Assembly (NCBI GenBank): GCA_001724265.1
Contig: MEDY01000124.1
Location: 50,501-70,500 of the forward strand
Direction of reading: 5' to 3'
From: Rhizaria sp. SCN 62-66
Lineage: Eukaryota
Length of the DNA: 20,000 bases
Position numbers and translations under genes: made by a program. Positions 1-19,095 of this stretch are shown piece by piece; position 1 is the stretch's first letter, and the number at the start of each line of letters is the position of its first letter. The notes under the pieces are model-generated. The model worked only from the letters and a program-made list of their open reading frames with translations. It was not told the DNA's origin and ran no database searches.

Positions 1-1
1 C

Positions 2-1891
2 AAGCCCAACGTGGTCTCGGAGACCGTGGCGAACCACGTCGACGCGAACCTCGCCGGCGCGGGCCACCCGGGCACCGTGCTACTTAACAAGCCCAGCGGA
101 CCGTACTTCCAGGCTTTTCCGTACATGTCGACTCCGTTCAGCGCCGTCGACGACCTCAAGCGCCGCGAGCGGCTCGAGCTCTCGGGCAAAATGACGCTGC
201 TCGCGCACGAGCCCTGGCGCCCCACGCACGCGCGCCCCGAGACGTGCTTTAACCCGCCCCCGCCGGTCTTTGCTGCACCCGTACGTCTCTAACTAAATCA
301 ACGCTCCATTCTTTGCCCTTGAAATGCATTCCTCTCCCACACTCACTGGTTTTTATCTCTCCCCGTGTTGCTCTATTGCATTCATTGTACCACACAGAAC
401 CCGCTCGCTGCGCACGAGTTTTACAGCGACCCGTTCGAGGACGCCGACGACGTGGAGCTGCGCGCGCGCTGGTTCGAGCGCTCCCGCGTGCGCGCGGGTC
501 CTTTCCTCGCTGGCGGCAAGGCCCCCTCGTCGACGTCGACGGCCTCGGCCGTGCCCTCCGCGACCTCGTCCGCTGGGCTTTCGCGCCAGGACCTGCCGCG
601 CGTCCTGCAGCGCCTGCGCGCGCTGCTGCGCGAGGACTGGGCCGAGGCCGAGACGTCGGTGTACGCCGACGAGGACGGCTACGTCGTGCTCGAGTTTGAC
701 ATGAACACATGTCCGTCGCGCCGCAGCGTGCTCGCCTACATGAACATTGTCACGGGCGCGAACCCAATCGTGTCGGAGCACGGACTGCGCAAGGTGCCGC
801 AGCTCTGGGGCTACTTACCCAAAAACAACAACAACAACAGTAACGCCGGCGGTGAAGCTCAATCTGGGTCTCAGCAACAGCAGCAGCAGTCGCAGCAGAC
901 TGCTGACGGCAAGCAGGACGGCGCCCTAACCGACAGCAGCGGCGAGCAGCAGCAGCCGGGGGGCCAGGGCGGTGACGGTGGCAAGGACCTGAACAAGATG
1001 TACTTCGCGTTCCGCCCGCCCTGGCTGGCGCAGGCGCCGCTCGAGGCCTACTACACTCTGCATCCGGAGAAGCGGTCGTTCCGCGCGGACCAGGCTCACC
1101 AGCGGCGCACGGCGGCCGAGGCGCAGGCGCGCGACGAGGAGGCCGCGCGGCAGCATCTGGCGCGCCAGCATGCGGTGCACCAGCAGCAGCAGCAGGGCAC
1201 TTTCGCGCAGCTCATGTCCCCGCAGCCGCCGCAGCAGCAGCAGCCGTCGTCGCTGGGGGCGCGTGGCGCGCGCGGCAGCGGCGGCGGCGGCGCGCTAGGG
1301 ACTGTGAGTAGCTCAGGCGCGCAGCCGAGCGCCGTGCCGCTGTCGCAATACGATTCGCCCTACTCGTTCGAAGCCGCGGGTCCCGGCACGCTGGCCTACG
1401 GCGCGCGCAGCTCGCTTGCCGTCACACCCACCAATAGCGCGCGCGCGGGCCCCCTGGGACCCATGGGTGCCGCTATGGGTACCGCGGGGACCACGGGCGC
1501 GTTGTACGCGAGCGCAGGCACGGGCGCCGCGAGCTACAACACGGGCTACAGCGCGTCGGTCGAGGACGGCGAGGAGCGCTATCACGGCGCTGGCGCCGCG
1601 CCGCTCGGGTTTGTGCGCGGGGACCAGTTTGTGGTTGACGCACAGCAGCAGCAGCTCATGCAGCAACAGCAGCAACAGCAGCAGCAGCATGGCAAAAGCG
1701 CGAGTTACACGCAGGGATACGGCGCGCACGCGTACGGCTCTCAAGGGTATGGCTCGCAAGGGCAGTCTAACCGGAGCTCGCTGGGGCAGACGCAGATGCA
1801 GATGATGCAGACGCAGGCCTCACAGCCAGCCTACTACCAGCAGCAGCAGCAGCAGCAGCAGCAGCCGCAGGCGCTGGCCCGACCCGGCTGA
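2..1891 (+). CDS. 5'-partial hypothetical protein (exons 2-280 and 398-1891; ~590 aa in window), folded N-terminal part plus Gln/Gly/Ser-rich low-complexity C-terminal tail
   Basis: Frame is open from base 2 (KPNVVSET...). ORFs 11..292 and 365..1891 join in frame across a phase-0 intron to give ...FAAP|NPLAAHEFYSDPF.... GC3-rich codon usage in both exons; TGA at 1889-1891 followed by an AT-rich 3' region. Confidence 0.82.
281..397 (+). other. spliceosomal intron (117 nt, phase 0)
   Basis: Donor GTACGT at 281, acceptor CACACAG ending at 397, pyrimidine-rich low-GC interior containing an in-frame TAA; removal keeps the frame. Confidence 0.88.
1838..1864 (+). repeat. (CAG)9 coding microsatellite (polyQ)
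   Basis: Nine perfect CAG units encoding the Gln run in YYQQQQQQQQQP; further CAG/CAA tracts near 872-889, 1181-1195 and 1643-1687. Confidence 0.9.
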
Positions 1892-2384
1892 GCATGGCAG
1901 CCAGCTCATCAGATGCACGTTTGCGTGTCTTCGTTTAACATGCGAGCTGATGTTTGATGTCGTGTCATAAGCTCGCTTTGTGCGTATTTGAGAAAATGCT
2001 GATTGGATCGTTACATTAGATTGCTTCTTGTTGTAATTTGCTCTGGATTAGGTGTGTTTGCCTGAGTTTTAAATCGTTCCATGAGTGTATTGCATTGCTC
2101 GAGTTAACTGCTTGAAACAAGACCACCGGCAAGGCCTCTGGCCCTGCTGTACACAGAATTGAATACATACGTCAGTATATCTATCATCAAAATATCTATA
2201 TAATTAGCGAAATACTATTGATCCGTTCAAATAGTCACAATGAAAAAACCTTATCAAGGCTAGTTGTCTAGTTGTGAAACAGAAGCGTAAAGTCGACGTA
2301 AACGCATTCACAGCATAAGTGCCCACCGCCACAGCAACCGGGGACTACAGCTACTACATACTGCGGTAACTCCACGCGCCCCAC

Positions 2385-3404: not shown

Positions 3405-3870
3405 CAGTGCTGCAAGAAATTAAATAATACGGGTCATTTGAAGGATATGAGAGTTCGTATGCACAGTTCAATTTTGACACCAACGATGAAACAATTGCGC
3501 TGTGGATAATCAAATCAGCCCAACTTTCGAGGGGGTGTGGCGTGATCTCTCGCTCGGCCACAGTCTGTCTTAAGAGCCCGACGGCACTGCGGACATTGAT
3601 CATGTGCACACGTATAAGGCCGTCGTTAAGAATAACGTCTGCATACTATATTATACTGATGCGCATGTGCTTATTTTTATAATTATACTTTCTACAGACC
3701 TATTTATAACTCACACCACTTACTCGCTTATCCTTCCGCACCCCACCATCAAAGCTTTACAACACCCACTTCGGCTGGCCCATTGCAACGGCACTCTTGG
3801 GTTCTCTCTTCAAGACACAGCAAAGGTACACCATCACCTAATCACCGCTCTTGCGGAGCGACTTGTCAGG
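3405..3870. promoter_or_regulatory. putative bidirectional promoter / 5' UTR region between divergent genes
   Basis: 466-bp AT-rich spacer between the carrier ATG (3404, minus) and the giant-ORF ATG (3871, plus); TATA-like runs around 3613-3710. Function is inferred from the geometry. Confidence 0.55.
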
Positions 3871-6800
3871 ATGCAACACCGCGCCCGCCACCTCGCTGGC
3901 GCCCTGCGCGCCGCAGTGCCCGCGGCGCCCGCACTGCCGTCCTCCGCGCTCCAATCCCCTGCCCTCGCGTCAACGGCGGGCCAGTCCCGCGCCATGTCGT
4001 CGTCGTCGTCGTCGTCGTTCTCGTCCTCGTCCTCCGGCCGCGGCGCGTCCCCCCGCAAGGGCTCTTCCGCGCGCATGCCCCCCACGTCGTCGGCGGACAT
4101 CGCGCAGCGCCAGTTCCGCCGCCCCGAGACCAGCGTGCTCGGCCGCTCCGGGGGCTCACTCAACAGCACCACCCCGGCCGAGCCCGAGGGCGCGGGCGAG
4201 AGCGAGGAAGAGGCGGACCCGGCGCTGGCGCTCGTGCAGCGCTACCTGGCGGCGGGCGACGTCGCGGGCGCCGAGGCCGCGCTGGCGATGGCCGTGCGCT
4301 CCACCGAGGACCGCCTGGGGCTCGACTACGTGGGTGGCGCGGGTACTCCGGCGACAGACGCTAAAGCCAACACAAACGTCCATCACTCATTGCAACAACA
4401 GCAGAAACAGACCGCTAAGCCCGCCAAACCTGCCACAACGAAGCTTTCTCAAACTGCTGCTGGCGCTAACGCTGCGAAGCCGCCTGTGACGCTGACGTCG
4501 CTGATGCAGGCTGCGCAGCGCGCGGAGCGCCGCGGGGGCGCGCTGGCAGCGCCGGTGCCGACGCAGGCTCAGCTGCGCGCGGAGCACGCGGCGCAAGGTG
4601 AGCGGCTTGCGCGCGGGGAGGACTTCGCTAGGGAGCAGACGCTGCACTTCGCTGCGCTCGGCCAACGCGCGGCCATGGGCACGGAGGAGGCGCTGCGGGC
4701 CGCCGCGCGCCGCAGGGCGGGGCTGCCCGCCGAGGAGGACGTCGACGACGACATTGACGACGATGTCGACGACGAGGTTGACTATGACGAGAACGATGAC
4801 GTCGAGGACGGCGCGTACGACAGTGATGGCCGCGCCGGCTCCGGCTCCGGCTACGACTCGGCCCTTGACTCCGGCGCCGACGCCGAGCTGGGCTCCGGCG
4901 TGGACTCGGCGGCCGAAAGCGGCGGGCTTATGAGCGGCTATGACTCGGACGCCCGCGCCGCCGACTCCGAAGTGCTGACGCGCATCGCAGAGGCCGGGCG
5001 CGCAGGCCGGCTTGGCAAGGACGCTGAGTGGTTCGACCCACGCCGGCCCGACGCGCTTGCGCGCAAGAGGGAGAAGGACGCCGCCGCCACCGCTAATACC
5101 AGTGCCAGTGCGGCCCGCCGCGGCGAGGTTGAGGAGGACGACGATGTGGACGCGGATGCGAGTGGGCGCGAGAGCTGGTTTGACTCTGCGATGCAGGCAG
5201 CCTCAGGCACTGAGGGCGAGCAACAGCGCAGCCAGCAGCAGCAGCGTGAGCAAAGCGACGCTGAGTGGCAGGCCCACGCGCGCGCCGCGATGTGGCACAA
5301 GGCCGGCAGCCCACCATCACAATCACCGGCTCACCCTGCGCAGTTATCGCGGCCGGAACAGGCCGCCGCCGCCGTGGCCGCGACCGCGCGCGCCACGGGC
5401 ACCACGGTCACGGCCCCGCCCGGCGAGCCCGCCTTCGCGTGGCCGCCGCCGCGCCGCTCGCTCGGCCTCTCCCGCCTTATGGCCTCTGCGCGCCCCCTGC
5501 CGTCCACCGCCTCAGCTGTCAGTGGCGCCGAAGGCACCGGCGCTAGCGGTGCTGGGTCGATGTCGGGCGTGGCGGCGCTGCGCCAGCTGCCCACCGCGGC
5601 CGCCCGGGCGGGAGTGCGCGGGGCCACAGCCGCGCTCGAGGCCGCGATGGCCGACATGGCCGCCGAGCTGGCCGCCGCGCGCACCGCGGCTGCCGCGGCC
5701 GCCGCTGAGGCCGCGGCGACGGGCGCCCCGGCGGCGGCGCCGTCGACCGCGGCCATCGCGCGCGCGCACGCCGTGGCGGCGGCGCTGACCGAGCTGTGCG
5801 CAGGGCTCGTCGCTGACGGCGCCGCGGACTCCGGGCTGCCGCCGCCGCGCCGCGCCGCCGCCGCCGCCGCGGGGCTGTCGCTGGACCCCGCGGAGCTGGT
5901 GCGCGAGTTCCAGGCCCACCGCGGCGCGCGCCTGGAGCACGAGGTCGCGCTTGGCGCAGACACCGACGGCGACAACGGCGGCGAGAGTGTGGCCGCAACT
6001 GTGGAGGCGGTGCGGGCCCCGGCGCTGTCGGCGCCCGCGCTGCCGTTCGAGCCCTTCGCGCCGTCGTTCGCGCGCAGCGACTCGGCGGCCGCACTCACTG
6101 CTTCGGCCGTGGCGGCGGCGGCTCCCACTCCGCGCGCCGCGCTGCTGGCCATGTCACCCGCCGCGGCCGCGTCGGCGCTGCGCGACGACCCGGCCTTGCT
6201 GACGATGCTGCGCATGCTCGACACCGCGGCTGCGAACGAGGCCCTCGGCGCCGCCAAGGGCAAGGGTGCGCGGAGCGACAAGGACGCGGCCGCGGCGGCG
6301 GGGACGCAGGTGGCCGTGCTGCGCGCGCTGCGGTCCGTGCTGCCGGCGACGTTCTCGCGCGTAGTGGCGACGATGGGCGCGCGCGGCGGGCGCGCGATGG
6401 CGCGCATGATGCAGGCCTCCGAGTCCGCGGCGGCGGCGGCGGCGCGGCGCGGGGCTGCGGCGCCCGACGCCGCGGCGGCCGCCAAAGAGGGCGCGCGCGC
6501 GACGGCCGCGCTGGCCAGCGAGCTGCGCAACATCGCCGCCAGCGAGGGCGCGACTGGCGCGCAGTTGCCGCCGGAGGTCGCGCGCGCGCTCGGCGTCGCC
6601 ACACCCGACGCCGAGGTCTCCCCCTCGCTGACTGGGGATTCGCAGGCGCATGCGCAGACACTTGAGTCAGACGAGGCCGCGGCGGTGCGGCGCGTGGCGG
6701 CGCTCATGGCGACGGACCGCGACGGCATCGTGGTGGATCTGGCCACAGAAGAACGCCGGCTCGCGCTCATGGCCGTCGAAGGGCTCTCACCGGCGGCCGC

Positions 6801-9800
6801 GGCCGCGCGGGCCATCAACGACGTCCACGGCGCCGACTCCGCCTCTGCTGCAGACGCCAGTGCGGACGGGGGCGAGGTCGTCGACGAGTACGGCGTGACC
6901 AAGGAGCAGCGGCAGCTGCAGGCGGCGCTGGTACAGTATGAGAACATGCTGCGTCGGCGCGTGATGCTGCTTGAGGCGGAGAAGGAGGCGCAGGCCACTG
7001 GCGCGCCGTTGATCGACGACCTGCGCACCCTGGCGTCGCGCATCGCGGCCGTGCGCGCCGATGTCAAGGACCGCCCGGAAGACTCGTCGCTGCTGCGGCG
7101 CGCCAACGAGCTGTACAAGCAGCTGGCCTTCGTGCAGCAAACGAAGCGGACGAACCCGACGCTCTACTACTGGCGCAAGTTTCTGGCCAACATCCCGCGG
7201 TCCGCGCGCGCTGACGCCATGGCGGCGCACGAGCTGCCGAACAACCCCATCGCGTGGGCCATCGAGACGGGCGAGCAGGAGGCCGCGCGCCGCGCCGCGC
7301 TCGCCGCGGGAGTGCCCGACGAGGAGTCGGCCGCGCGTCAGGACGAGACTGACAAGCCGCGGCTGACCCCGGAGATCGTCAAAGACGCGCTCACGCGGCT
7401 TGTGCGCCTGCGCCGCGACACCGCCGCGCTCGAGGCGCGCATCGAGCGCTCCGTGGCCGCGGGCGACGCCGCCGCGAAGCTGGCGAAGCGCGAGGGCCGG
7501 CCGCCCGCGCGCGCGCAGCGCGAGTCCGGCGGCACAAGCGCGGCCGAGGTAGAGCTCACGGAACACATGCGGTTCCTGTGGTCGCTGCGCGCTGACTGCG
7601 AGCTGGCGACGGCGGCGATCGAGCGCGACACGCGCGCCGAGCAGCGCGCGCTGCGGATGCGCGAGGTGCAGCGCGAGCTCAAACTTCTTGCCGGCTCGCA
7701 GGTCACGGATGCCGAGCGGCGCGTGGACGAGCTGCAAGAGCTCACGCGCACTGCGATGCTGGGCCGCAAGGCGCTGCGGTTCAACGTGACCGAGCTGGCC
7801 GAGGAGCGTGACGAGGCCGCCATGCACGGCGGGCACGTCGAGGCCCTCGTCGCGCCCAGCAAGTTCCGCCAGCGCGCCAACAAGACCGTCGCCGCGGGCG
7901 CCGCGGGGGCCACGGTCGCGTTCGTCGACCCGCTTCTCGCGCTCGCGCTGGCCGGGGATGATCCCGCTGCCGCTGCCGCCGCCACGGCCGGGCAGGCCGA
8001 CGCGTTCGGCTCCACGGCAGGCCGCGCGATGCCAGGCTCGGTTCAGGAGGCGCTGCAGCTGCAGGCGCGCGCGGTGCTGGCGTCTCCGACCGCCGCGGCC
8101 GCGTCCGCCGAGACTGCGGCGGCCGCCGCCGCCGCGGCGTCTGCGCTGCCGCGGTCCGAGGTCGCGCACCTCAAAGCGCAGGAGGCGCTGGCGCGCGCCG
8201 CCGAGGCAGAGGCGCGGCGCACAGTCATCACTGCGGCCGCGCAGGAGCACATCCTGCGGGCCGCGCAGCAGGAGCAGCAGGCGGGCGCGCCGACCACGGC
8301 TGCGCGCGCGAAGCTGACGCTGCGCGAGGTCGCGCCCGCGGCCGCGCGGCTGCTGTTCGGGCGCGTCGTTGGCGCGCACGGTGCGCGCGTGCTCGTGGAG
8401 CAGGTGGGCACGCGCGCCTACGCCAAGCACGCCATGTACTACGCGGGCACGCCCGTCGAACGCCTGCTGCGCGCTGTGGCGCCGCGCGCCGAGGACGAGG
8501 GCGAGGAGGCCGCCGCCGCCGCGGAGGCCGTGGCGCGCGCGCTCGACCTGCCCGGCGCCACCGCTGCGGCGCGGAATGCCGACAACGACGGCGAGATGGC
8601 CGCTGCCGATGCAGTGCTTGGCAATCGCCTTAAGACCTCCCAGCCCACTAATGACGCTGATGCCGAGGCTGATGCTGTCGCAGAGGCTCTGGAGCAGGGC
8701 GCCAGCGCCGGTGCAGTCAAGGCGGGCCGCCGCTGGGAGGCCGCACAGCGCCGGAACAACAACAACATCAAGTCACAGACTGCGGACGCCGAAAATGACG
8801 AGGACGTCGACGATGACAACGACGAAGAGCTCGACACCGACGCCGACAGCGCGACCGAGAGCGCTGTTTCTACTTACAAAGCGGGCGCGCGTCCGCTGTG
8901 GCAGTGCACCAAGTCGCGGCACATGCAGCTGCTGTGTGGCGACTATGTGCTCTTCGACCCGCACGCCGCGCGCGCGTGGTCCCAGTCGGCCGCGACCACG
9001 GCGGCCGCGGTCACCGCGCTGGGCGCTGCCGCCGACGGCGTCGTTAAGGTCGTCTTCAAGCGGCTCAACGAGCTCAAGCGCGGACTGGCCGTCAAGAAGC
9101 GCGGCACAGTGCTCTCGCAGCCAGCGTCAAGCATGGCGGCCAACGCGGACCACGTCGTGGTCTTGTGCGCGGCCGAGGGGCAGCCGCCGCTGTCGCCGTT
9201 CTTGCTCGACCGCTTCATCGCCATCGGCCAGCAGGCCAACGTGCCTGTGACGATTGTGTACAACAAGGTCGACCTGCTGGACACCGTCGCGGCGGCGGCG
9301 GAGGACTTCGAGCGCGAGCAGGCCCGTGCGCGGCTGCTGCGCGAGAAGAAGGTCAAGAACCACAAGTTGCGCCGCCAGATGCAGCGCGAAGACGCCGATG
9401 CCGACGTCGCTGTTGAGGATGACGCTCAATTGGAGAACGACGGCGAGGAAGAGGAGGAGTGGGACGAGGAGCAGTGGGAGGCGGCCGAGGCCGAGGACGC
9501 AGCGCAGCGCCGGCTCGCTCGTTGGGTGCGCAAGCGCGGCAAAGAGAGCACCAACGGGCGCCGCACGGCGTACTTGCCCGCCGAGGTGGACGCGCTGCTC
9601 GCGGCATACGAACAGCTCGGCCACCGCGTGATCCGCACGTCGGCGACGACGGGGCAGGGCGTGGACGAGCTGCGCGGCGTGCTGGACCGGTTCCACACGT
9701 CGCTGCTGCTGGGGCCCTCGGGCGCGGGCAAGAGCTCGCTGCTGAACCTGCTGCTGCCCGACACGCAGCTGCGCGTGAACCGGCTGACCGTGTCGGGCCA

Positions 9801-12800
9801 GGGCCAGCACACGACCACGGCGGCGAACCTGTACCGCCTGCCGTCGGGCGCCGCCATCGTCGACACGCCCGGCTCGCAGGGCTTCCTCCCCGACCTGCTC
9901 AATGCAGGCATGCTCGGCGTCCCCGGCGGGGCCGCGGGTGGCGAGGCCGCGGCCAGCACGCTGCAGCCCGGCGCGCCCGCCACCGCAGGCTCCGTGTCCA
10001 TGGCGGGTCCTGCGAGCTCGGCGCTAGTCGACGCGCAGGCGCTCGTGGCCTCAGTGGCCGGTTTGGGCAGGCTCTTCCCGGAGATCTCCCGCGCGAGCGC
10101 CTTCTGCCGCCTGGGCAACAAGTGTACGCACGTGCGCGAACCGGGCTGCGCGGTGAAGGAGCTCGTTGGCGTCGGCGCGGACCACAAGGCCGTGACGGTG
10201 TTCGACCTCTACCGCATGGACAAGCAGAGCAACGTATACGTGGCCAAGTTCTGGCAGGACCTCCGGTCGGGCGCGCTGCGGCCGCTGGCGTCGCTGGCGT
10301 CGCCGGACCCCGTGCTGGTGTTCGCCGCCAAGTGGTACCGCGACTGGGACGCCGGGCTGGCCTCGTCGCCGGCGCACAAGCCGCTCGACACGCACTCGCC
10401 CGCCGAGCTCAAGGTCATGGGTCAGCTTGCCGCCGCGACCGAGGCCGGCCGCAAGCTGGGCTCCGCGGCCAACCCCGGCTCGGACAAGCGCGGCGCGCGC
10501 GGCGACGTGGCCCCGCCGCGCGCGGCCGCCGCGATGCGCACCGCGCCCGTCGAGGCGGACTCGGAGCAGGCCATGGCGCTGGCGGGCGTCCCGCTGGGCG
10601 CTAGCGCCGAGGACGCGATGTTCGCCAAGGACGACGAGAAGATCCTCACGGAGCAGATGTCGCCGTCCCCGCAGCGCTTCGCGCAGGCCGCCGCGGCCGA
10701 CGCCGCCGACGCGGCCGCTGCGGCTGGCAAGCCGGATCCCTACGAGGGCTCGAGTCTGCGCAGCCGGCTGCTGGACGAGTCGGTGCTGGCGGCGCAGCGC
10801 GGGGACGCGCCGGGCGCCGACGCGCAGGACAAGGCGGCGCCCCCGCTGGGCGTGACGTCGCCAGAAGTGGTGCGCGAGCTGCTCGAGCGGCGCGCGCGGC
10901 GCGTGGCGCGCGATGTCGCCGAGATGGAGTTCGACCGCGACCTGTCCGCCGCGGAGGCCGCGCTGGACCGCATCGAGCGCGCCGAGGAGCGCAAGAAGCG
11001 CGCCGCGGTGCGGTCTACGGCCGGCATCCGCGGCGATCGCGATATCGAGGCCGATGAGGCTCTGGCCGAGGCCGAGGCCGAGGCCGAGGCGGAGGCGGAG
11101 GCTGCGGCGAAGTCAAAGGCACACGGTGGCGAGGTCGAGGCGTCCGAGGAGCAGCCGCCCAAGTCGTCGATGGCGCGCCTGTTCGCGGACATGGGCCGCG
11201 CGCCGTCGACGCTGGTGCGCATGCCGGGCATTCCCGCCAAGTACTACGCGCAGCAGCGCGAGGCGCAGGCCGCCGTTGACATCATGAACTCGAACCTCAA
11301 CGGCGATCATGATGACGCAGACGGTGGCGATTCCCTGTCGCCGAGCGGCGGCCGGCGCATCACCCCGGAGGCCACTGCCGAGGTCGCGTACGCGGCGCGC
11401 CGCAGCCCGGCTGCCGCCGCCGCCGCGGGCGTGTCCGTCGACCGCATGCGACTCGCGGACCGCGCCGCCGACGGCCGCGTCGTCGTGCGGCCCGTGCACA
11501 GCAAGTTCGACCGCCTGCTTTGGGAGAAGCTCTGGGCCGCGGCCGCCAGCGGCGCCAAGCCCGGCAAGCAGGCCGGCAGCAACACTATAGCCGTGCTCGC
11601 CCCCGCCAACACCTCCCCGACACGCGACGCCGACGCGGCCGCCGACTCCGCCGCGTCTGCCGGCAGCCGCGGCGGCGCGCTGGACGCGGCAGCGGAGCTC
11701 GGCTTTAGCGCCACGGGCCGCATGATGCGCGCGATGGACCGCGCGCGCCAACGCGCCTCCGAGGCCGGCGGCGACGGCGCGGACGCCGGCGTCGTCGTCG
11801 CGGGGGTGAGCCTCGACGCCTATCTGGCGGGCAAGCGCGCCGCCGACGGCGAGACGGTCGTGCTGCCATCACTCGCCGCCCTCGCGCGCGCGGGCTACGC
11901 CACCGCCGCGGACACCGCCGCAGACGGCGGCGCGGCCAAGCCCGGCAAGGGCAAGAGCACGCCGCTGTCGGCGCTGCCCATCGCGGACCCGGACGACGAC
12001 GACTTCGACGCCAACTTCACTGCCGGCGGCCGCGGGCGCACCAAGCGCGAGCGCCGCCTGGCCGCGCAGCAGGCGCAGCGCGACCAGCGCATGCGCGCGC
12101 TGCGCGCAGAGCTCGACCGCGTAGCCGCTGACGTCGAGGCCCAGCCTGCGCCCGTGACTCCCGCGGCTGCTGCGGCTGAGCCGGTGTCCGCGCCGCGCGC
12201 GGTGACCAAGACGTTCACGCCCTCGGCGACCGCTGCGCTGCGCGCGACGGTCGCTGGCGTTGTCCCGCTGCGCCCGCCAACTGCACTGCCAACCACGCAC
12301 GCGCTGCCCGTCACGCTGCACGCAGCGCTGCCGGCACTGGGCGGGCTCAAGCTGCCGACGGCGATGCGCCTGCCCTCGGCGGCTGCACTCCCCGTCGTCG
12401 TTGCCGCCGCCGCGCCGCCGAAGCCCACTGCGGGCGCTGCGGCGGTGAAGGTCGGCGAGTTCGAGGTGGAGGAGAGCGAGACGGAAATGCACGACGAGTC
12501 CCCCTTCTGGCGGATGCCGCGCGTCGCGCCGCTCCAACCCCACCTCAAGCGCGCCCCCGCCCCCGCCGCGGTCGCCACGGAGATCGGGCGCGAGAGCGAG
12601 CGCGATATGAGTGGCGTGCACATCTTCGACTACACGTCAGAGTCTGCGACGAACGCGGACGAGGACGCTGCGGCGCAGAGTAAGGCCGAGCTGAGCATGT
12701 TGAGCGGCCAGCGCGTGCCCGCCGGCGCAGCGCGCGGCCTGATGATTGCGCCCTCGCGCTACGAGAGCTACGTGCGGTTGCGCGGGATCCTCGCGGCGAC

Positions 12801-13365
12801 GACGGAGGCCCTGCGCACGCGCGGCCGGTCCAGCGCTAGCAAGAAGTTAGCCCGCGTGGAGCTGGAGACGGCGGCGGAGCGCGAGAAGGCCGAGATGAAG
12901 AAGTACAAGAAGGTTGCGCTCGCGCGCGCGCTGCGGCACGATAGCCGTGCGTTTGACGCGCTGGTCAAGCAGCAGGCCGCCAAGGAAAACGAGCTGCTGG
13001 GCGAGGGCTTCGACGCGACCGAGACGGTGCGCGCGCGCCTCGCAGTGACGCTGCACAACAGCGGCCAGGCTGTCGGCGCGAGCGCGAAGCAGGTCCGCGA
13101 CAGCGCCAAGAAGGGCCGCAGCGACAAGGTGATGACCGCGGAGCTCCGCACGAGCAGCAGCGGCAACGGCGGCGGCAGCGGCGGCGGCGATGGGGAGAGC
13201 TTCGGCATGGACGGCCACGATGACGCGGAGAAGGTGATGCGCGCGCACACGTACGAGGGCTCGGCTGAGGCCAACGAGGCGCGGGTGAAGCTTGGCGAGC
13301 GCGTGACGGGCATGGTCGGGCAGCGCGCGAATGCGACTGTTAAGTCGCTGCGTGAGAGCAAGTAA
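3871..13365 (+). CDS. rsgA: giant (~3,164 aa) RsgA/YjeQ-family circularly permuted GTPase with large low-complexity insertions and extensions; predicted mitochondrial
   Basis: Uninterrupted ORF; first in-frame ATG at 3871 coincides with the switch to GC-rich coding composition. Motifs in RsgA order: AANADHVVV (9136), G4 NKVD (9262), G5 TSA (9637), G1 GPSGAGKS (9712), G2 GQHTTT (9802), G3 DTPG (9862), Zn finger CRLGNKCTHVREPGC (10105-10149), OB-fold pieces at 8359-8400, 8896-8958 and 9037-9081, and IAPSRYESYVRL at 12745-12780. Confidence 0.9.
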   Translation: MQHRARHLAGALRAAVPAAPALPSSALQSPALASTAGQSRAMSSSSSSSFSSSSSGRGASPRKGSSARMPPTSSADIAQRQFRRPETSVLGRSGGSLNSTTPAEPEGAGESEEEADPALALVQRYLAAGDVAGAEAALAMAVRSTEDRLGLDYVGGAGTPATDAKANTNVHHSLQQQQKQTAKPAKPATTKLSQTAAGANAAKPPVTLTSLMQAAQRAERRGGALAAPVPTQAQLRAEHAAQGERLARGEDFAREQTLHFAALGQRAAMGTEEALRAAARRRAGLPAEEDVDDDIDDDVDDEVDYDENDDVEDGAYDSDGRAGSGSGYDSALDSGADAELGSGVDSAAESGGLMSGYDSDARAADSEVLTRIAEAGRAGRLGKDAEWFDPRRPDALARKREKDAAATANTSASAARRGEVEEDDDVDADASGRESWFDSAMQAASGTEGEQQRSQQQQREQSDAEWQAHARAAMWHKAGSPPSQSPAHPAQLSRPEQAAAAVAATARATGTTVTAPPGEPAFAWPPPRRSLGLSRLMASARPLPSTASAVSGAEGTGASGAGSMSGVAALRQLPTAAARAGVRGATAALEAAMADMAAELAAARTAAAAAAAEAAATGAPAAAPSTAAIARAHAVAAALTELCAGLVADGAADSGLPPPRRAAAAAAGLSLDPAELVREFQAHRGARLEHEVALGADTDGDNGGESVAATVEAVRAPALSAPALPFEPFAPSFARSDSAAALTASAVAAAAPTPRAALLAMSPAAAASALRDDPALLTMLRMLDTAAANEALGAAKGKGARSDKDAAAAAGTQVAVLRALRSVLPATFSRVVATMGARGGRAMARMMQASESAAAAAARRGAAAPDAAAAAKEGARATAALASELRNIAASEGATGAQLPPEVARALGVATPDAEVSPSLTGDSQAHAQTLESDEAAAVRRVAALMATDRDGIVVDLATEERRLALMAVEGLSPAAAAARAINDVHGADSASAADASADGGEVVDEYGVTKEQRQLQAALVQYENMLRRRVMLLEAEKEAQATGAPLIDDLRTLASRIAAVRADVKDRPEDSSLLRRANELYKQLAFVQQTKRTNPTLYYWRKFLANIPRSARADAMAAHELPNNPIAWAIETGEQEAARRAALAAGVPDEESAARQDETDKPRLTPEIVKDALTRLVRLRRDTAALEARIERSVAAGDAAAKLAKREGRPPARAQRESGGTSAAEVELTEHMRFLWSLRADCELATAAIERDTRAEQRALRMREVQRELKLLAGSQVTDAERRVDELQELTRTAMLGRKALRFNVTELAEERDEAAMHGGHVEALVAPSKFRQRANKTVAAGAAGATVAFVDPLLALALAGDDPAAAAAATAGQADAFGSTAGRAMPGSVQEALQLQARAVLASPTAAAASAETAAAAAAAASALPRSEVAHLKAQEALARAAEAEARRTVITAAAQEHILRAAQQEQQAGAPTTAARAKLTLREVAPAAARLLFGRVVGAHGARVLVEQVGTRAYAKHAMYYAGTPVERLLRAVAPRAEDEGEEAAAAAEAVARALDLPGATAAARNADNDGEMAAADAVLGNRLKTSQPTNDADAEADAVAEALEQGASAGAVKAGRRWEAAQRRNNNNIKSQTADAENDEDVDDDNDEELDTDADSATESAVSTYKAGARPLWQCTKSRHMQLLCGDYVLFDPHAARAWSQSAATTAAAVTALGAAADGVVKVVFKRLNELKRGLAVKKRGTVLSQPASSMAANADHVVVLCAAEGQPPLSPFLLDRFIAIGQQANVPVTIVYNKVDLLDTVAAAAEDFEREQARARLLREKKVKNHKLRRQMQREDADADVAVEDDAQLENDGEEEEEWDEEQWEAAEAEDAAQRRLARWVRKRGKESTNGRRTAYLPAEVDALLAAYEQLGHRVIRTSATTGQGVDELRGVLDRFHTSLLLGPSGAGKSSLLNLLLPDTQLRVNRLTVSGQGQHTTTAANLYRLPSGAAIVDTPGSQGFLPDLLNAGMLGVPGGAAGGEAAASTLQPGAPATAGSVSMAGPASSALVDAQALVASVAGLGRLFPEISRASAFCRLGNKCTHVREPGCAVKELVGVGADHKAVTVFDLYRMDKQSNVYVAKFWQDLRSGALRPLASLASPDPVLVFAAKWYRDWDAGLASSPAHKPLDTHSPAELKVMGQLAAATEAGRKLGSAANPGSDKRGARGDVAPPRAAAAMRTAPVEADSEQAMALAGVPLGASAEDAMFAKDDEKILTEQMSPSPQRFAQAAAADAADAAAAAGKPDPYEGSSLRSRLLDESVLAAQRGDAPGADAQDKAAPPLGVTSPEVVRELLERRARRVARDVAEMEFDRDLSAAEAALDRIERAEERKKRAAVRSTAGIRGDRDIEADEALAEAEAEAEAEAEAAAKSKAHGGEVEASEEQPPKSSMARLFADMGRAPSTLVRMPGIPAKYYAQQREAQAAVDIMNSNLNGDHDDADGGDSLSPSGGRRITPEATAEVAYAARRSPAAAAAAGVSVDRMRLADRAADGRVVVRPVHSKFDRLLWEKLWAAAASGAKPGKQAGSNTIAVLAPANTSPTRDADAAADSAASAGSRGGALDAAAELGFSATGRMMRAMDRARQRASEAGGDGADAGVVVAGVSLDAYLAGKRAADGETVVLPSLAALARAGYATAADTAADGGAAKPGKGKSTPLSALPIADPDDDDFDANFTAGGRGRTKRERRLAAQQAQRDQRMRALRAELDRVAADVEAQPAPVTPAAAAAEPVSAPRAVTKTFTPSATAALRATVAGVVPLRPPTALPTTHALPVTLHAALPALGGLKLPTAMRLPSAAALPVVVAAAAPPKPTAGAAAVKVGEFEVEESETEMHDESPFWRMPRVAPLQPHLKRAPAPAAVATEIGRESERDMSGVHIFDYTSESATNADEDAAAQSKAELSMLSGQRVPAGAARGLMIAPSRYESYVRLRGILAATTEALRTRGRSSASKKLARVELETAAEREKAEMKKYKKVALARALRHDSRAFDALVKQQAAKENELLGEGFDATETVRARLAVTLHNSGQAVGASAKQVRDSAKKGRSDKVMTAELRTSSSGNGGGSGGGDGESFGMDGHDDAEKVMRAHTYEGSAEANEARVKLGERVTGMVGQRANATVKSLRESK
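9133..10170 (+). other. RsgA GTPase core plus Cys3His zinc-finger domain
   Basis: Circularly permuted G4-G5-G1-G2-G3 order followed by FPEI...C-x5-C-x-H-x2-EPGCAV, diagnostic of RsgA/YjeQ/CpgA rather than other cpGTPases (RbgA, YqeH/NOA1, LSG1). Confidence 0.95.
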
Positions 13366-13388
13366 GCAAGTAAGCAAGCGAGCAAGCA
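13357..13388 (+). repeat. imperfect 8-bp tandem repeat (AGCAAGTA)2-AGCAAGCG-AGCAAGCA spanning the stop codon
   Basis: Read directly from the sequence; the TAA at 13363-13365 lies inside the array. Confidence 0.85.
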
Positions 13389-14121
13389 ATGAATGATGCA
13401 TGTGAGTGATCACACGCCTGACTGGTAACCAAAGCCACATGCTCACGCGACGACATGCTGTTTGGCGACAATTAAACGCACGTATTTATTATAACTATTC
13501 TTAATAACATTTAAGTTGATGCCTTAGGCTGAGATATGGCCTTTGTGTACGCAATAAACGACGAATCTTTAGTTACGCATAACAGTGAAGTTTGAGTTGA
13601 TATCGACACATATCCAGTCTTAATGACATGTTATTAGCAAGCATACTAGTGAGTTCTATAGCTATATGCGTATTGGTGATGTATACTACTTGTTTGTAAC
13701 AATTTGAACGAAATACAACTCGTTTTGTGAAAATGTGTCAAGCGGTCAGGTTTTGTGGTTGGCTGGTCGATGTATAAGCCTCGATTCAAACTAAGATCAG
13801 AGAATGTAGAGTCCGTTAATATGGACACGGTGCTATCATTAACGTAATCCAGCTGGTTTCTACTTTGTATTTAAGTCTTGCATGTTCACTACTCTATTTT
13901 GAAGCGCTGGGGTCCGGGAAATCTCGCTGATTCCAGAGTCGGGCCTCGTAATGATCAACTCCAAAACCTATGCCTCTAAACGCTTCATTTATCGAAGCAT
14001 CGTCCATTTTTGTTTACCACATATCAATTCTTTTTTCTACGTTGGTATCCTTTCTCAGTTGATTTTATCTTGCCTCTTTGTACCTTCTTTTCCTTCTTCC
14101 TCATCAGAGCATTCCGTTGGG

Positions 14122-15108
14122 ATGCAGCCGCACCACAACTGGAGCAGGCCACCCCCCGGTGGCAACAACTACGGCACGCCCCAGTTCCCCCACCCGGGCG
14201 CGCCCCACCCACCTTCCGGCTTGCCGCAGCACTACGCCTCCGGCCCCGCGCATGCGCACGCGCAGCATACGCCGCCGCAGTTCGGCGTCTCCCCGCCCCG
14301 CCACCACTACCACGGCGACCACAGCTACAGCCAGCAGCAGCCCCAGCAGCAGCAATACCAGCAGCAGTATCCGCCGCAGCCGCAGCATCACGGCGGGCCC
14401 CCGCGCCGCGACTACGGGGACCGGCCTGACTCGTACCCGCGCCGCAACGACCGCCAGAGCACCGCCAACTCTCACGGGTACGGCGCCGGGTACGGCGGCG
14501 GCTCCGGCGGCGGCGGCTACGGGGGTGGTCACAACCAGCAGAGCCAAGGCTTCGGAAGCCAGCGCCAGCAGCAGGGCGACGGCCAGGGCCACGGCCGCCA
14601 CAGCGCCAGCCCCGGCGGTCACAGTGGTCGTGGCGGGTATGACAACCACAACGGCCACCGCGGCGGTCGCGGCGGCGGCGGCGGCGGCGGCCGTGGCGGC
14701 GGCGGCGGCGGCGACGGCAGGCGCGGCGGGCGCGGCACCGGCGGTGCTGGCGGCGGCGGCGGGATTCGGCTTGAGGGCGGGCGCTCGCTGGCGCTGCCGA
14801 GCATGGCGCAGGACCCCTGGCTGCGGCACGGGCTGCTGACGGCAGACCGCGTGCGCACGCTCGACGCAGAGTGGACGGCGCGCAAGGCCGCCGGCGCCGG
14901 GGCCGTCGCGCACGCGCTCGGGACGCTGCCCGTCGCCGCGGCGACTGGGACCGCGACGGCTGGGGCGCGGGACGCGCGCGGGCAGAGTCAGCAGGCGGCT
15001 GCTGTCGCTCCTGTTGTGGCTGTTTCTGCGACTGCAGTGACGGAAGGGGGTGGCAAGGATGCGAGTGGGGAGATTGAGCTGGATATGTACGACATGTTCC
15101 AGACATGA
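14122..15108 (+). CDS. 328-aa Gly/Gln/His/Pro/Tyr- and RGG-rich disordered protein, possibly MPLKIP/TTDN1-like
   Basis: ATG at 14122 marks the onset of GC-rich coding composition. Prion-like N-terminus, RGG/GGC repeats, then PSMAQDPW (14797-14820) resembling the PSMLEDPW signature of MPLKIP/TTDN1; acidic C-terminal GEIELD. The CDS is well supported; the family call is tentative. Confidence 0.72.
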   Translation: MQPHHNWSRPPPGGNNYGTPQFPHPGAPHPPSGLPQHYASGPAHAHAQHTPPQFGVSPPRHHYHGDHSYSQQQPQQQQYQQQYPPQPQHHGGPPRRDYGDRPDSYPRRNDRQSTANSHGYGAGYGGGSGGGGYGGGHNQQSQGFGSQRQQQGDGQGHGRHSASPGGHSGRGGYDNHNGHRGGRGGGGGGGRGGGGGGDGRRGGRGTGGAGGGGGIRLEGGRSLALPSMAQDPWLRHGLLTADRVRTLDAEWTARKAAGAGAVAHALGTLPVAAATGTATAGARDARGQSQQAAAVAPVVAVSATAVTEGGGKDASGEIELDMYDMFQT

Positions 15109-15592
15109 GCTTTCAAGTTCTATTGCTGAAGGTTATTGCGATCCAAGTGTTCTTAAGACGAACTGTTCATGCCATACAAAGCGAGTGGCCTTAGTAACGG
15201 TGTTGCGTCAGCAGATACAGCAGGATACGTCGCGAAAACTAAGGTCCTTTAGGTGTCCACGATTATGTCAAGATATAATCAGGCCGAATATGTATATAAA
15301 TACAATACGCTCTCTAGTTTTCGCCGAGTTCCGCTTGGTGCACTGCGCTTACAGTCGTTTTGAGCACCCACTGCTACTGCAGTCCGTTCTCAGCCAACTG
15401 GCCAGGGAAACGGCAGTTCAAACGGCATTGACTGTAACGCAATTGAAACATCGTGAAATCTAAATGGGGCAAGTTTTTCTGAATTAAAAAGCTGCTATTT
15501 ATTTATTTTATATTTTGAAATTTCTATCATCATGCTAATTCTCCTGTTCTTACCAACCTCACTCATCCTTCTTTTCACTTCTCCAGAGAGCG

Positions 15593-17839
15593 ATGTCAGC
15601 TTCGTCTGCCGATGCCCTCCAGGCGATGCGCGCAAGCATCAAGCGTGGTGGCATTGACCTCATGGCTGCTTTCCGCGCTTTCGATAAGTACGTCATGCTC
15701 TTCTCGTATTTCCCTTTTTCTATCACACCCCACGCCAACAAAAAAAACAAACACCAAGCTCACTCGTCCCTGAACAACACTCCCTCTGATCTCTCGTTGC
15801 TCCCCAGCCTGCGTCTTGGCCGCGTCGACTTCTTCCGCGTGCGCCCGATCCTGGGTACGAGCGGCGTGCCCATGCCATCCGCGGAGGCGCTCGACGCGAT
15901 CATGGCCGACTACAAACATCCCGCTGACAAGACCAAGTTCGACTACTACCGCTTCGTTAAGGAGCTCGAGGACGTGCCTTCCTTCCATGCCGCCGTCCCG
16001 GCCCCGCGCGCCTTCACCGCGACGGCCGCGGCCGCGCTGCCGGCCAAGGTGCTCGCGCAGACCGAGGCCACGCTGGCGCGCCTGCAGGCCGTCGTGGCGC
16101 GCCTCCGCATGGACATCACGATCTTCTTCCAGGCGCACGACCGCTTCCGCAACGGCACGTGCCCGCCGCCCAAGTTTGGCTCCGTGCTCACCTCCTGCGG
16201 ACTCGTCGTGTCCGCCGCGGAGCTCGCCGCGCTGCTGCAGCGCTTCCACGTCTCCGAGACGGCGACAGACTACAAGTCGTTCCTCGCGCTCATCACAGCG
16301 CCCCCCGCGTCGCAGGACCGTGACCGCTACGGCGGCGACGGCGCTGACACCAGCGGGCCCGCGTCGCTCTCGGCGAGCTTCTCCCCCGCCAAGCAGTCGA
16401 TGTCGCGCACCTCCGCGCCGCCGCGCTCGACCTTCGACCAGCCCGTGGCCGTCGCCACCGACGTGTTGACAGTGCTCCGCAAGGCGCACGCACTCTTCTC
16501 GGCCGCGCGCGTGCAGCTCGACCCCTGCGCCAACTACTTCCGCGACCACGACCCGCTGAACCGCGGCGCCGTTGAGACGGGCGTGTTCGCGCGCGTGCTC
16601 TCCTCGGCCTACGCGCTCGCGTTGAGCCCGAGGGAGATCGCGGTGCTGACCGAGCAGTATCTGCTCACGCCGCCTGGCGCGTCACCCGCGTTCGTCGACT
16701 ACCGCGCCTTCGTCGCTGACGTCGCGATCGCAACGGCGGGCGGCGACGTCTTCGCGCTCGAGCGCGCGCCCACGCGTGATCTCACGGCGCCCGCGCCCGC
16801 CTGGTCCCCGCACGAGGAGAACGCCGCCTCTTTCGACGGCAGCACCGACGCCGGCTCCGGCTCCGGATCTGCTGGTGGCGGCGCCGGCGCGGGGCGCGTG
16901 CAGGAGCTACTCGCGGCGCTCGCGGTTGCGGGCTTCGCGCGGCGGCTGGAGCTGGAGCCGTCCTTCACGGACCGCGACCCGCTGCGCAAGGGCTGCGTAA
17001 ACGCGCGCCAGTTCCAGACGGTCATCTCCGAGATTCCCGCCGCGGGCGCGTTCCTCGCGCGCGACTGGGCCGCGCTGCTGGCGGCGTACCAGAAGGGCGC
17101 GCTGGGCCACGATTACCGCGCCTTCCTGGGCGACCTGCGCGCGCAGCAGCGGCGCGTGCAGGAGGGCCACCAGGAGGTCGTCGCGCGCGCGCAGGCGCAG
17201 GGGTTGTCGTCGTACGAGCTGCCGCCTTCGGCCGCGCTCACGCACGCGCGCCAGACCATGGGCGTGCGCGAGCTTGGCGGCGCCACGGCCGTGGGCTCGG
17301 GCGCCGCGCCGCGCGCCGCGGGCACGGCCGCGATCAAGGGTTATGGCCCCGTCGTCGGCGGCAGCACGCCCGGCGCGCGCGCGCACGACCCTTTCCCGAG
17401 CAACATCAAGAACGCCACGCTGCCCCGCGGCGCCGGCGGCGTGTACGGCTCCGGCGGCGCCGAGAGAGTCGAGGTCGCGGGTGTGCCCGAGGGCGCCGCG
17501 GGCGGGCTGTTCAGCTCGATGGCGGTGGGCGAGGACCTGGGCTCCGCGCTGGCCGCGCGCACCGATGCCGTGGTGCGCAAGGTGCGCGCGCTTGTGGCCA
17601 GCCGCCGCGTGCCGCTGCGCACGCACCTGGCGGCCGGCGACCGCGCTGGCTCTGGGCTGGTCGACCTCAACGTCGTGTGGCAGGCGCTGGCCAACAACGG
17701 CGTTGCTGTCAGCCAGGAAGAGCTCGAGCTGCTCGCGCTGCGCTACGAGCAGCCCGGAGCCGGCAAGAGCTTCCAACAGGGCGGGTCCGGCGCGCGCATC
17801 GCGTACGCGCAGCTCTGCGACGATGTGCAGTCCGCGTAA
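15593..17839 (+). CDS. multi-repeat degenerate EF-hand protein (EFCAB6-like architecture), exons 15593-15687 and 15808-17839, 708 aa
   Basis: Five repeats with loops FRAFDNLRLG (after splicing), FQAHDRFRNG, FRDHDPLNRG, FTDRDPLRKG and LAAGDRAGSG, each followed by an E..xL...[YF] helix and a [DA]Y..[FL] motif (FDYYRF, TDYKSF, VDYRAF, HDYRAF, IAYAQL). Confidence 0.85.
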   Translation: MSASSADALQAMRASIKRGGIDLMAAFRAFDKYVMLFSYFPFSITPHANKKNKHQAHSSLNNTPSDLSLLPSLRLGRVDFFRVRPILGTSGVPMPSAEALDAIMADYKHPADKTKFDYYRFVKELEDVPSFHAAVPAPRAFTATAAAALPAKVLAQTEATLARLQAVVARLRMDITIFFQAHDRFRNGTCPPPKFGSVLTSCGLVVSAAELAALLQRFHVSETATDYKSFLALITAPPASQDRDRYGGDGADTSGPASLSASFSPAKQSMSRTSAPPRSTFDQPVAVATDVLTVLRKAHALFSAARVQLDPCANYFRDHDPLNRGAVETGVFARVLSSAYALALSPREIAVLTEQYLLTPPGASPAFVDYRAFVADVAIATAGGDVFALERAPTRDLTAPAPAWSPHEENAASFDGSTDAGSGSGSAGGGAGAGRVQELLAALAVAGFARRLELEPSFTDRDPLRKGCVNARQFQTVISEIPAAGAFLARDWAALLAAYQKGALGHDYRAFLGDLRAQQRRVQEGHQEVVARAQAQGLSSYELPPSAALTHARQTMGVRELGGATAVGSGAAPRAAGTAAIKGYGPVVGGSTPGARAHDPFPSNIKNATLPRGAGGVYGSGGAERVEVAGVPEGAAGGLFSSMAVGEDLGSALAARTDAVVRKVRALVASRRVPLRTHLAAGDRAGSGLVDLNVVWQALANNGVAVSQEELELLALRYEQPGAGKSFQQGGSGARIAYAQLCDDVQSA
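15688..15807 (+). other. spliceosomal intron (120 nt, phase 2, no in-frame stop)
   Basis: Donor GTACGT (same as the 281 intron), CTGAT branch-like motif at 15786, pyrimidine tract and CCCCAG ending at 15807; low-GC interior; removal restores a D-x3-G EF-hand-like loop matching the other repeats. Confidence 0.85.
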
Positions 17840-19095
17840 GCAAGTATCAGTACAGCTGCGTGTATATGCAACTCTTTTCGTGCATGCTTTTTGTTTTTTT
17901 ATTCGCCGGTGTCAGTTTATTTTGCAGTCTTGAGTTTTATCATATGTGTCTTGTATAGTCTCGATCAAATATGCGCGCGAATTTTCAATGATCGCCCTCG
18001 TTGCGTCAATAAATAGTTTTGTGATAAAATAGGATCGAGAGCGGTTCCGGCGTAAAGTCTCCTTCGTCAGGGATTGAGACATAAATAACACTTTCACAAC
18101 ATAGTATAAGAGGATAAAGTACGACTGTAAATCTAAGTCACCATATCAAACGTTGAATACTTTTGGCGATTATTCTGTTGAGACTTAGCTGCAAAACGAT
18201 TTTTCTTCTTGGAGTGAGCGGAGGGTATTTCTGTGAGAAACTTTGGGTCCACGCGATATCCACCCTCTGCCTGGAGACTTGGAGTTCAAAAAGGAGCAAG
18301 CTTTCCTTTTCATGCAGTTAAGGGCTGGAGGGCTCTTGCGACGGACTTTTGAATCTGTGGCTTGTCATTATTGTTGACCGTAAGCGGTCGTAACGTTGAT
18401 ACGTTAATGTAACTGACACGAAGTACCAGGTTTTATCTGTGTGCTTTTATTATCCCCTGATTATCTTTGTGGTGATCGTGAAATCCAAGTTTCGAGTTTG
18501 TTGTCACCCAAAGTATGGGGCAGCAGCGGGCGCACGTGGACGCCTTCGGTCGTAGCGCAGTAGGTGACATGACAGAAGTGCAACGCGAGCATGCCCGCAA
18601 TTACGCCGCCAGCGACTCCGCTCTCGTCTTTATCGCCGACGGTCTCAAACCCGGCCTCAGTCGCCGACGGGACCGTTGCGGGGCATGAGCGGCGTGTCGG
18701 ATGGGCGCGACATCAACTGTGCCTCTATGATTGAAATGATGATCACATAACGGAGTGGTTGTCACGTGTCACAAGCTTTGTAAAGCACTAACGATGAATC
18801 TATATAAACTGCATTGGCTTTGTACTTCTGTCCCACAACCATGTTCTCTTTGTTGGAGTTAGAGGATCACTCTCAAACATGCCTCTTAAACGCAAGCTTC
18901 CTGTTAGTTAACCGTAAGCACATGTTGAACATACTCCCTGCTTACCACCCCCACTTATCACGACAAATACCCCTTTTACGTGTTTTCCCCCCACTTTGAA
19001 CACGTCTCTGTGCCGGTTGTATTACCCTTCGCATGTTTCTCTTCATGTCCGCCTTTCATCGTCCTCCAACACAGTTTGACGCGTGCGTCGCAACG

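Follow-up and report, generated by a model that had tools for sequence, protein, structure and literature searches.

RsgA, also called YjeQ, is a bacterial GTPase of small-subunit ribosome assembly. The proteins described under the names RsgA, YjeQ, EngC and YloQ, with structures solved from E. coli (7boi, 5no2, 5uz4), T. maritima (1u0l) and B. subtilis (1t9h), form the nearest known system to the gene analyzed here, which lies in a 20,000-nucleotide stretch of DNA from Rhizaria sp. SCN 62-66 (contig MEDY01000124.1, positions 50,501 to 70,500; hereafter the window). According to passages of a study on E. coli YjeQ (PMC4436671), the zinc-coordinating part anchors YjeQ on the 30S subunit; the C-terminal helix is not required for binding and is needed for 30S-stimulated GTP hydrolysis, RbfA release and in vivo complementation. 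Excerpts of a report on plant mitochondrial RsgA (PMC12672651) describe a 66-residue C-terminal extension that plugs the mRNA channel, and state that plants have conserved RsgA, which is not found in yeast or human. A giant eukaryotic RsgA/YjeQ homologue is encoded in the window, in which the OB fold, the circularly permuted GTPase and the zinc-binding domain are all present. Its C-terminal helix (G.I...RY.sY..L) can be recognized in the same reading frame, displaced by 855 residues, and is predicted to pack in the canonical way.

The open frame has a G+C content of about 74%. From the ATG at 3871 onward, G+C at the three codon positions is 0.78/0.60/0.88, and in residues 1-89 it is 0.55/0.34/0.47; since it is flat in the 89 codons preceding the first ATG, the gene most likely starts at 3871. 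The protein matches the Pfam family RsgA_GTPase (PF03193) with 123 bits (E 1.5e-35, cutoff 30) and TIGR00157 with 111.9 bits (cutoff 100), and misses the equivalog cutoffs of PRK12288 (119.6 vs 360) and PRK12289 (79.3 vs 483). Solved bacterial RsgA chains also match it by sequence (best, 1.1e-25). A Pfam search of all 3253 residues at E <= 1 returned only RsgA and weak overlapping P-loop matches. A reference hidden Markov model (HMM) profile was built from 95 full-length bacterial RsgA representatives, taken from the library search. Its positions 41-147 fall on residues 1769-1902 (OB fold), positions 142-245 on residues 1994-2097 (127.2 bits) and positions 250-288 on residues 2152-2191 (33.2 bits). 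The GTPase motifs follow the permuted RsgA order (NKVD, residue 1887; GPSGAGKS, 2037; DTPG, 2087). In an alignment of 98 sequences, i.e. the 95 representatives, the window protein and two long relatives, the G1, G2 and G3 residues are invariant and the N, K and D of G4 nearly so. The same alignment shows no variation at the zinc ligands C2168, C2174, H2176 and C2182 (in the numbering of the aligned fragment, C329, C335, H337 and C343). The C-terminal zinc-binding motif of RsgA (Cys, Cys, His, Cys) is present, and zinc binding is predicted from it.

A preliminary description of this DNA had placed an insertion of about 858 amino acids (aa) inside the zinc-finger domain, between the zinc finger and a block containing RYESY (the RY block), and had proposed that this block is a helix which was kept by selection and folds back. 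EPGCAVKELVG (10138-10170, residues 2179-2189) and IAPSRYESYVRL (I-A-P-S-R-Y-E-S-Y-V-R-L; 12745-12780, residues 3048-3059) were both read from the DNA in the single frame 3604-13365; position 10105, from which the feature had been drawn, falls on the codon of C2168, which is the first zinc ligand. The profile alignment halts at position 288 (residue 2191) and restarts at position 289 (residue 3047), and the proposed length is close to the 855 residues (2192-3046) between them. The last profile piece sets positions 289-328 on residues 3047-3086, from the consensus 'eiseeRyesYlrlle' onward. The insertion site is the loop between the post-knuckle helix and the last helix of the domain. The insertion is accordingly located within the zinc-binding domain, as had been proposed, but after all four ligands and not between them.

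In an ungapped scan with profile columns 289-303, the RY block ranked first in the 3253 residues with 21.1 bits (runner-up, 6.6). None of 200 shuffled window proteins reached this score, the highest attaining 13.9. The rise in HMM score expected on joining residue 2191 to 3047 was found in a join scan, scored with our own profile of the 95 bacterial representatives: adding the 40-residue window at 3047 to residues 1990-2191 raised the score from 171.8 to 198.1 bits (+26.3), the best of 1023 windows, with a median gain of 0.2. Unguided MAFFT alignment of the 1110-residue stretch with the bacterial sequences put the R of the bacterial RY motif of at least 90% of rows on R3052. For the relative P0002, at least 90% of rows likewise had theirs on the R of RYESY.

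Relatives of the window protein were sought in a protein library without the window's own protein. An exhaustive phmmer search yielded 6965 matches at E <= 0.001, a single one of which lay at E <= 1e-30: P0002 (1840 residues), 33% identical to the window protein over 559 aligned residues. Among the 150 matches listed of the 6965, none of the 149 besides P0002 exceeds 512 residues. P0152 (1779 residues) was reached by a word-based search that started from P0002, and P0153 (2544 residues), of the same cluster, represents its full-length form. A homologue search with residues 2140-3253, covering lengths 1789-5693, gave no match, and one with residues 1560-2260 returned P0002 only. When metagenomes were scanned for the family-specific KSRH..LLCGDYV by means of a degenerate pattern, the one locus found was on P0002's own contig, and no new member emerged. 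A mitochondrial carrier gene (Mito_carr) lies divergently upstream of the RsgA gene in the window (2385-3404, minus strand) and on the P0002 contig (L001, 2793-4019, minus strand); because of this matching neighbour, P0002 is regarded as a syntenic orthologue.

The RY block is conserved in all three members, as the preliminary description had anticipated for orthologues, with spacers of very different lengths. In both P0002 and P0152 the zinc knuckle is followed by a conserved stretch of about 65 residues (VT..[DE]L … NDP.[VL]L[FY]A.[KR].Y), which bacteria lack, then by a non-alignable spacer and by [FY]IPQ.RY[ED][SN]Y. The insertion had been described as one block; its first ~65 residues (2196-2255) turn out to be this conserved family-specific module and not spacer. 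The module has no Pfam match. From the G of GCAV to the R of RY there are 871 residues in the window protein, P0001 (2181 to 3052), 547 in P0152 (942 to 1489) and 137 in P0002 (1624 to 1761), and about 17 in the bacterial profile consensus. The total insertion before the last helix amounts to about 120 residues in P0002, about 530 in P0152 and 855 in the window protein. The profile breaks and restarts at positions 292 and 290 in P0002 (residues 1638 and 1757), and at 289 and 288 in P0152 (residues 953 and 1483). The ungapped scan again placed the RY block first in P0002 and P0152 (17.9 and 18.9 bits; runners-up, 12.4 and 9.8; 0 of 200 shuffles each), and the join scan gave gains of +18.1 (best of 167 windows) and +27.8 (best of 788). 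Downstream of the module, the best local alignment includes the RY block in three of three pairs, two of which beat all 100 shuffles.

These comparisons also bear on the suggestion that the true last helix directly follows the zinc finger (AVTVFDLYRM, 10189-10218) and that the RYESY block is a chance look-alike. This stretch, at which AlphaFold2 predicts short helices, includes GCAVKELVGVGADHKAVTVFDLYRM, paired by phmmer with the corresponding stretch of 2rcn at 6.1 bits; its F and Y, however, are lost in the orthologues (VTLADLIS, VTITELFD). In the join scan the natural continuation after the zinc finger changed the score by -0.5 bits in the window protein, +1.8 in P0002 and +0.1 in P0152, against +26.3, +18.1 and +27.8 for the RY block. 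It also falls outside the top five of the profile-column scan in all three proteins, and on the unjoined zinc-finger piece the curated TIGR00157 ends there, at position 230 of 247. In view of the join gains, the scan ranks and the aromatic residues lost in relatives, a helix in situ was rejected as very improbable. Judged by sequence, the RY block (MIAPSRYESYVRL..., 3047 onward) is the homologous last helix of the RsgA zinc-binding domain.

Docking of this helix was modelled with ESMFold2, which uses no alignment, with residues 1840-2191 and 3030-3100 given as two separate chains. The co-fold proposed in the preliminary description scored 0.62 (runs 0.63, 0.62 and 0.59), and the best of three controls 0.00. 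Of 78 solved complexes, 51 attain the mark applied, as do 2 of 108 mismatched pairs; among eukaryotes it is attained by 39 of 65 solved pairs that have no similar older complex, and by 2 of 126 unrelated pairs. At least 61% of contacts are shared between the runs, with a predicted local distance difference test score (pLDDT) of the partner of at least 56. The confident interface joins residues 3045-3060 to 2150-2167 (the LFPEIS helix), 2175-2177 (the His ligand) and 2183-2191 (the AVKELVGVG helix), and the lowest-error contacts are those of I3048, R3052, Y3053, Y3056 and L3059 with F2158, I2161, H2176, V2184, L2187 and V2188. To ESMFold2 the two pieces look like the halves of an RsgA zinc-binding domain; the prediction supports binding of the helix to this domain, without showing it.

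AlphaFold2 models of single chains can be superposed on solved RsgA structures up to and including the last helix. The model of residues 1990-3099, made with an alignment, has a mean pLDDT of 56.6, and 544 of its 1110 residues stay below 50. Values are 86-95 in the zinc domain, 65-79 in the conserved module and 89-96 in the helix at 3050-3098, which is surrounded by segments below 50. In a structure comparison all 14 RsgA entries aligned from model residue 1 to 1074-1086, reaching the last helix of the chain, e.g. 7boi_W (Z 10.4, root-mean-square deviation (rmsd) 3.4, 176 aligned, chain 168..346) and 9evt_7 (Z 10.1, rmsd 2.8, 173 aligned); the alignments of other circularly permuted GTPases end at 104-110. 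For the P0002 core (1085-1840) the pLDDT was 73.1, the predicted template modelling score 0.67 and the pLDDT of the helix about 94. This model superposed on 7boi_W with Z 32.1 and rmsd 2.5 Å (302 of 314 aligned, model 1..697 on chain 39..344), and all 14 RsgA rows end at 686-698. It includes the OB fold: its alignment with solved RsgA chains sets in with the first strand, at model residue 1 (chain residue 39 of 7boi_W, residue 1 of 1t9h).

The presence of the block in three of three members bears out the earlier proposal that the helix was kept by selection; its folding back is a prediction, with docking in trans as a possibility. The helix could be homologous and yet not complete its own domain: it might dock in trans (by a domain swap or in an oligomer), dock in a transient or regulable manner, or persist as a vestige kept for some other contact. 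The co-fold used two separate chains and is hence blind to the difference between cis and trans; the P0002 single-chain model, in which the insertion comprises only about 120 residues, nevertheless closes the domain in cis with a helix pLDDT of about 94. The spacer of the window protein is long and mostly of low confidence in AlphaFold2, and the conserved module beside the zinc finger, absent from the co-fold, could compete for the helix site. On the other hand, the predicted contact residues are the conserved ones, and nothing hints at oligomers. We consider such a fate of the helix improbable.

The frame is coding throughout the insertion, as judged from its composition and conservation, and the whole chain is presumably translated. 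In frame, G+C at third codon positions (GC3) is 0.82-0.97 across all of 10177-12741 (0.88 in the RsgA core), while the other two forward frames of this segment contain 13 and 9 stops. Contigs of a polyA RNA library are identical to 10323-10629, 10756-11023 and 12644-13000, the last spanning the junction of spacer and helix; a contig of a run with unrecorded type is identical to 9900-10317, spanning the zinc finger and the module. The public runs with near-identical sequence are environmental, and the contig cover of the insertion is fragmentary, with several bins uncovered. Because of this patchy cover, and because RNA libraries can contain DNA, the contigs are taken as supporting evidence only. 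No contig among those of the public runs placed on the window joins ~10170 to ~12740. Six contig joints have sides of only 20-25 letters of GC-rich low-complexity sequence; none links the ends of the insertion, and they were read as other organisms or repeats.

The 2.6-kb insertion could conceivably be an intron, an intein or an artefact of assembly, in which case the mature protein would lack it and have an unbroken domain. The protein is known from sequence alone, and the patchy RNA cover leaves room for such an explanation; yet the high in-frame GC3 runs through the whole insertion as in its flanks, the Pfam search of the 3253 residues gave no Hint/intein domain or other family besides RsgA and the weak P-loop overlaps, and the first ~65 residues of the insertion are protein sequence conserved in orthologues. 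Exact polyA RNA contigs lie inside the insertion and across its 3' junction, and the contig of another run crosses the 5' junction. The absence of a joint between its ends among the contigs placed argues in the same direction, as do P0002 and P0153, which carry insertions at the matching site on independent contigs. On the basis of GC3, module conservation and the contigs inside the insertion, the intron/intein reading was rejected; removal or artefact appears to us scarcely credible.

Very probably, then, the 855-residue insertion loops out, and the RY block, translated in the same chain, docks back as the canonical last helix. Lineage-specific insertions interrupt the canonical RsgA domains, the largest being the one of 855 residues in the surface loop before the last helix. 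The displaced helix would return to the zinc-binding domain within the same chain, its conserved I, R, Y, Y and L packing on the LFPEIS and AVKELV helices and on the His ligand, as they do in bacterial RsgA, and the insertion would loop out from the domain. The conserved module of about 65 residues probably constitutes a small lineage-specific subdomain, with probable lineage-specific contacts to the ribosome, and the remaining insertion a fast-evolving, mostly disordered Ala-rich spacer of freely variable length. The loop before the helix would be a permissive surface site that gathers sequence. From the function of the helix in E. coli YjeQ, as given in passages of PMC4436671, it follows that the helix has most likely been retained for a like role, i.e. 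coupling to subunit-stimulated GTP hydrolysis and RbfA release.

A number of observations weigh against docking of a homologous helix. The RY block is short. Taken as a domain of its own, it obtains just 3.6 bits from HMMER, its counterparts in the orthologues obtain 0.7 and 6.3, and decoys elsewhere -2.4 and -1.9, which is why three further tests were run on it. A phmmer search of PDB sequences with a 77-residue RY fragment returned no RsgA, only eL27 at E = 1, and a 71-residue fragment matched 0 NCBIfam families; the fragment is too short on its own for such searches. Against 2rcn, phmmer aligns the sequence after the zinc finger, …VGVGADHKAVTVFDLYRM, to the helix of that chain (6.1 bits). 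The downstream local alignment of P0001 with P0002 scores 51, and the highest shuffle 58. As three family members were found, two besides that of the window, the conservation statistics are thin. The co-fold was made without the conserved module that adjoins the zinc finger, and its result may reflect memory of the RsgA structures already solved. Nor are the AlphaFold2 models independent of the sequence result, because the input alignments already set bacterial helices on the block.

The target of the giant RsgA is probably an organellar ribosome, most likely the mitochondrial one. From the ATG, about 70 residues contain no acidic residue and are rich in Arg, Ala and Ser, which would fit an organellar presequence. 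The insertion might also be more than a tolerated loop and make the sensor helix tethered and detachable. Module and spacer would then bind lineage-specific mitoribosomal parts; the subunit's state would control docking of the helix and, with it, GTPase activation and release of an RbfA-like factor, or docking would be completed in trans between molecules; and the basic tail would block the mRNA channel as the plant extension does. We regard this elaboration as rather unlikely. The features of the locus are summarized below.

Features of the giant RsgA gene in the window (nucleotide positions; residues numbered from the first codon of the open frame)
Feature	Position	Strand	Remarks
Open frame	3604-13365	+	3253 codons; open reading frame (ORF) listing and translation
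Probable gene, giant 3164-aa RsgA/YjeQ homologue	3871..13365	+	First ATG 3871 (MQHRARHLAG...)
N-terminal extension, ~1490 residues	3871-8350	+	No Pfam family
OB-fold part	8353..9063	+	LFGRVVGAHG 8353 (residue 1584); WQCTKSRH..CGDYV 8899; GVVKVVFKR 9037
Insertion splitting OB fold, ~170 residues	8383-8898	+	Between LFGRVVGAHG and WQCTKSRH
Circularly permuted GTPase	9262..9873	+	G4 NKVD 9262-9273; G1 GPSGAGKS 9712-9735; G3 DTPG 9862-9873
Insertion between G4 and strand before G1, ~91 residues	9274-9570	+	
Gly/Ala-rich insertion between switch II and zinc domain, ~54 residues	9895-10056	+	
Zinc-binding domain, first part (residues 2152-2191)	10057..10176	+	LFPEIS helix, four predicted ligands, post-knuckle helix AVKELVGVG
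In-frame insertion, 855 residues (2192-3046)	10177..12741	+	Profile break at positions 288/289
Conserved family-specific module (residues 2196-2255)	10189..10368	+	VT..DL ... DPVLVFAAKWYRDW; three-way alignment with P0002 and P0152, and BLASTP
Hypervariable Ala-rich spacer	10369..12741	+	No alignment between orthologues; few confident helices, e.g. 2420-2472, 2814-2846
Displaced C-terminal helix (M3047 to ~3074)	12742..12825	+	Core I3048, R3052, Y3053, Y3056, L3059
Basic Lys/Glu/Arg-rich helical tail and stop codon	12826..13365	+	Translation; AlphaFold2 helix to 3098, the end of the modelled piece

The orthologues are interrupted at matching places by the OB-fold, GTPase and pre-zinc insertions, with differing lengths, and both have C-terminal tails of alike composition. 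Within the N-terminal extension, YYWRKFLANIP (7165-7197) has counterparts in P0002 and P0153, as found by eye. Ala makes up 23% of the 855-residue insertion. The spacer includes a perfect (Ala-Glu)n run, AEAEAEAEAEAEA, at 11065-11103; contig placement skipped 11053-11114 as a repeat.

Many ORFs of 200-600 codons overlap the giant gene at 5000-13400 in other frames and on both strands; such ORFs are expected in DNA of 74% G+C and were not taken as genes. The minus-strand neighbour at 2385-3404 matches Pfam Mito_carr with 2.3e-43, and since it encodes a mitochondrial carrier the organism is taken to be eukaryotic. Further long ORFs of the window (365-1891, 13951-15108, 15593-17839 and 19033-19734, all on the plus strand) gave no Pfam family at E <= 0.01; Gln, Gly and Pro are abundant in the one at 13951-15108. 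On L001, a 1806-codon ORF without a Pfam family (9988-15408, minus strand) lies on the strand opposite to the RsgA gene, 77 bases from its stop. The P0002 genome is compact, with alternating strands, unlike the gene clusters of kinetoplastids; a trypanosomatid affiliation, considered at first, is not supported.

A literature search found nothing that combines RsgA, the mitoribosome and protists, within a coverage that lacked subscription papers. A search on RsgA with trypanosomes revealed, by title, nothing on a giant RsgA family, and the name RsgA is absent from the main text of a paper on late small-subunit assembly in T. brucei (PMC8784144) and of a diplonemid paper (PMC10325924).

The three proteins document that eukaryotes possess giant RsgA homologues, a family whose members measure 1840-3164 aa. 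In them a helix of about 25 residues is retained across an insertion of 120-855 residues in a domain of about 70 residues, which is strong comparative evidence that what selection maintains is the helix and not an unbroken domain. They provide an unusually clear natural example of a discontinuous small domain, with an extreme and naturally length-variable insertion around a functionally defined helix. When such proteins are annotated by profile searches, the zinc-binding domain will appear truncated if nobody looks for the displaced block.

Among known systems, the window protein shares with bacterial RsgA the OB fold, the permuted GTPase (G4-G5-G1-G2-G3), the C..C.H..C knuckle and the G.I...RY.sY..L helix, in the same order. 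Unlike the bacterial proteins (~290-350 aa), it is eukaryotic and 3164 aa long, i.e. about nine times longer, and carries an N-terminal extension of about 1490 residues as well as insertions of ~170, ~91, ~54 and 855 aa. RbgA/YlqF, YqeH, Nog2, Lsg1 and GTPBP7 have the permuted G-domain in common with it (Z 7-8 and 11-16 over ~100-150 residues), and lack the RsgA zinc-binding domain and the RY helix. Most alignments of other permuted GTPases end with the G-domain (~104-110 in the window model, ~502-518 in the P0002 model), and two RbgA rows reach 679-680 in the P0002 model. Plant mitochondrial RsgA, known from cauliflower (9evt; excerpts of PMC12672651), is likewise eukaryotic with a lineage-specific addition at the C-terminal end, and resembles both proteins in structure (Z 10.1 for the window protein, 27.1 for P0002). 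The basic helical tail of the window protein (12826-13362, pLDDT up to 96) recalls the plant extension that enters the mRNA channel, as described in the same excerpts. According to these, however, the plant addition comprises 66 residues after an intact domain, whereas the insertion in the window protein splits the domain. The family is a known one; the domain split by an insertion and the giant size set these homologues apart.

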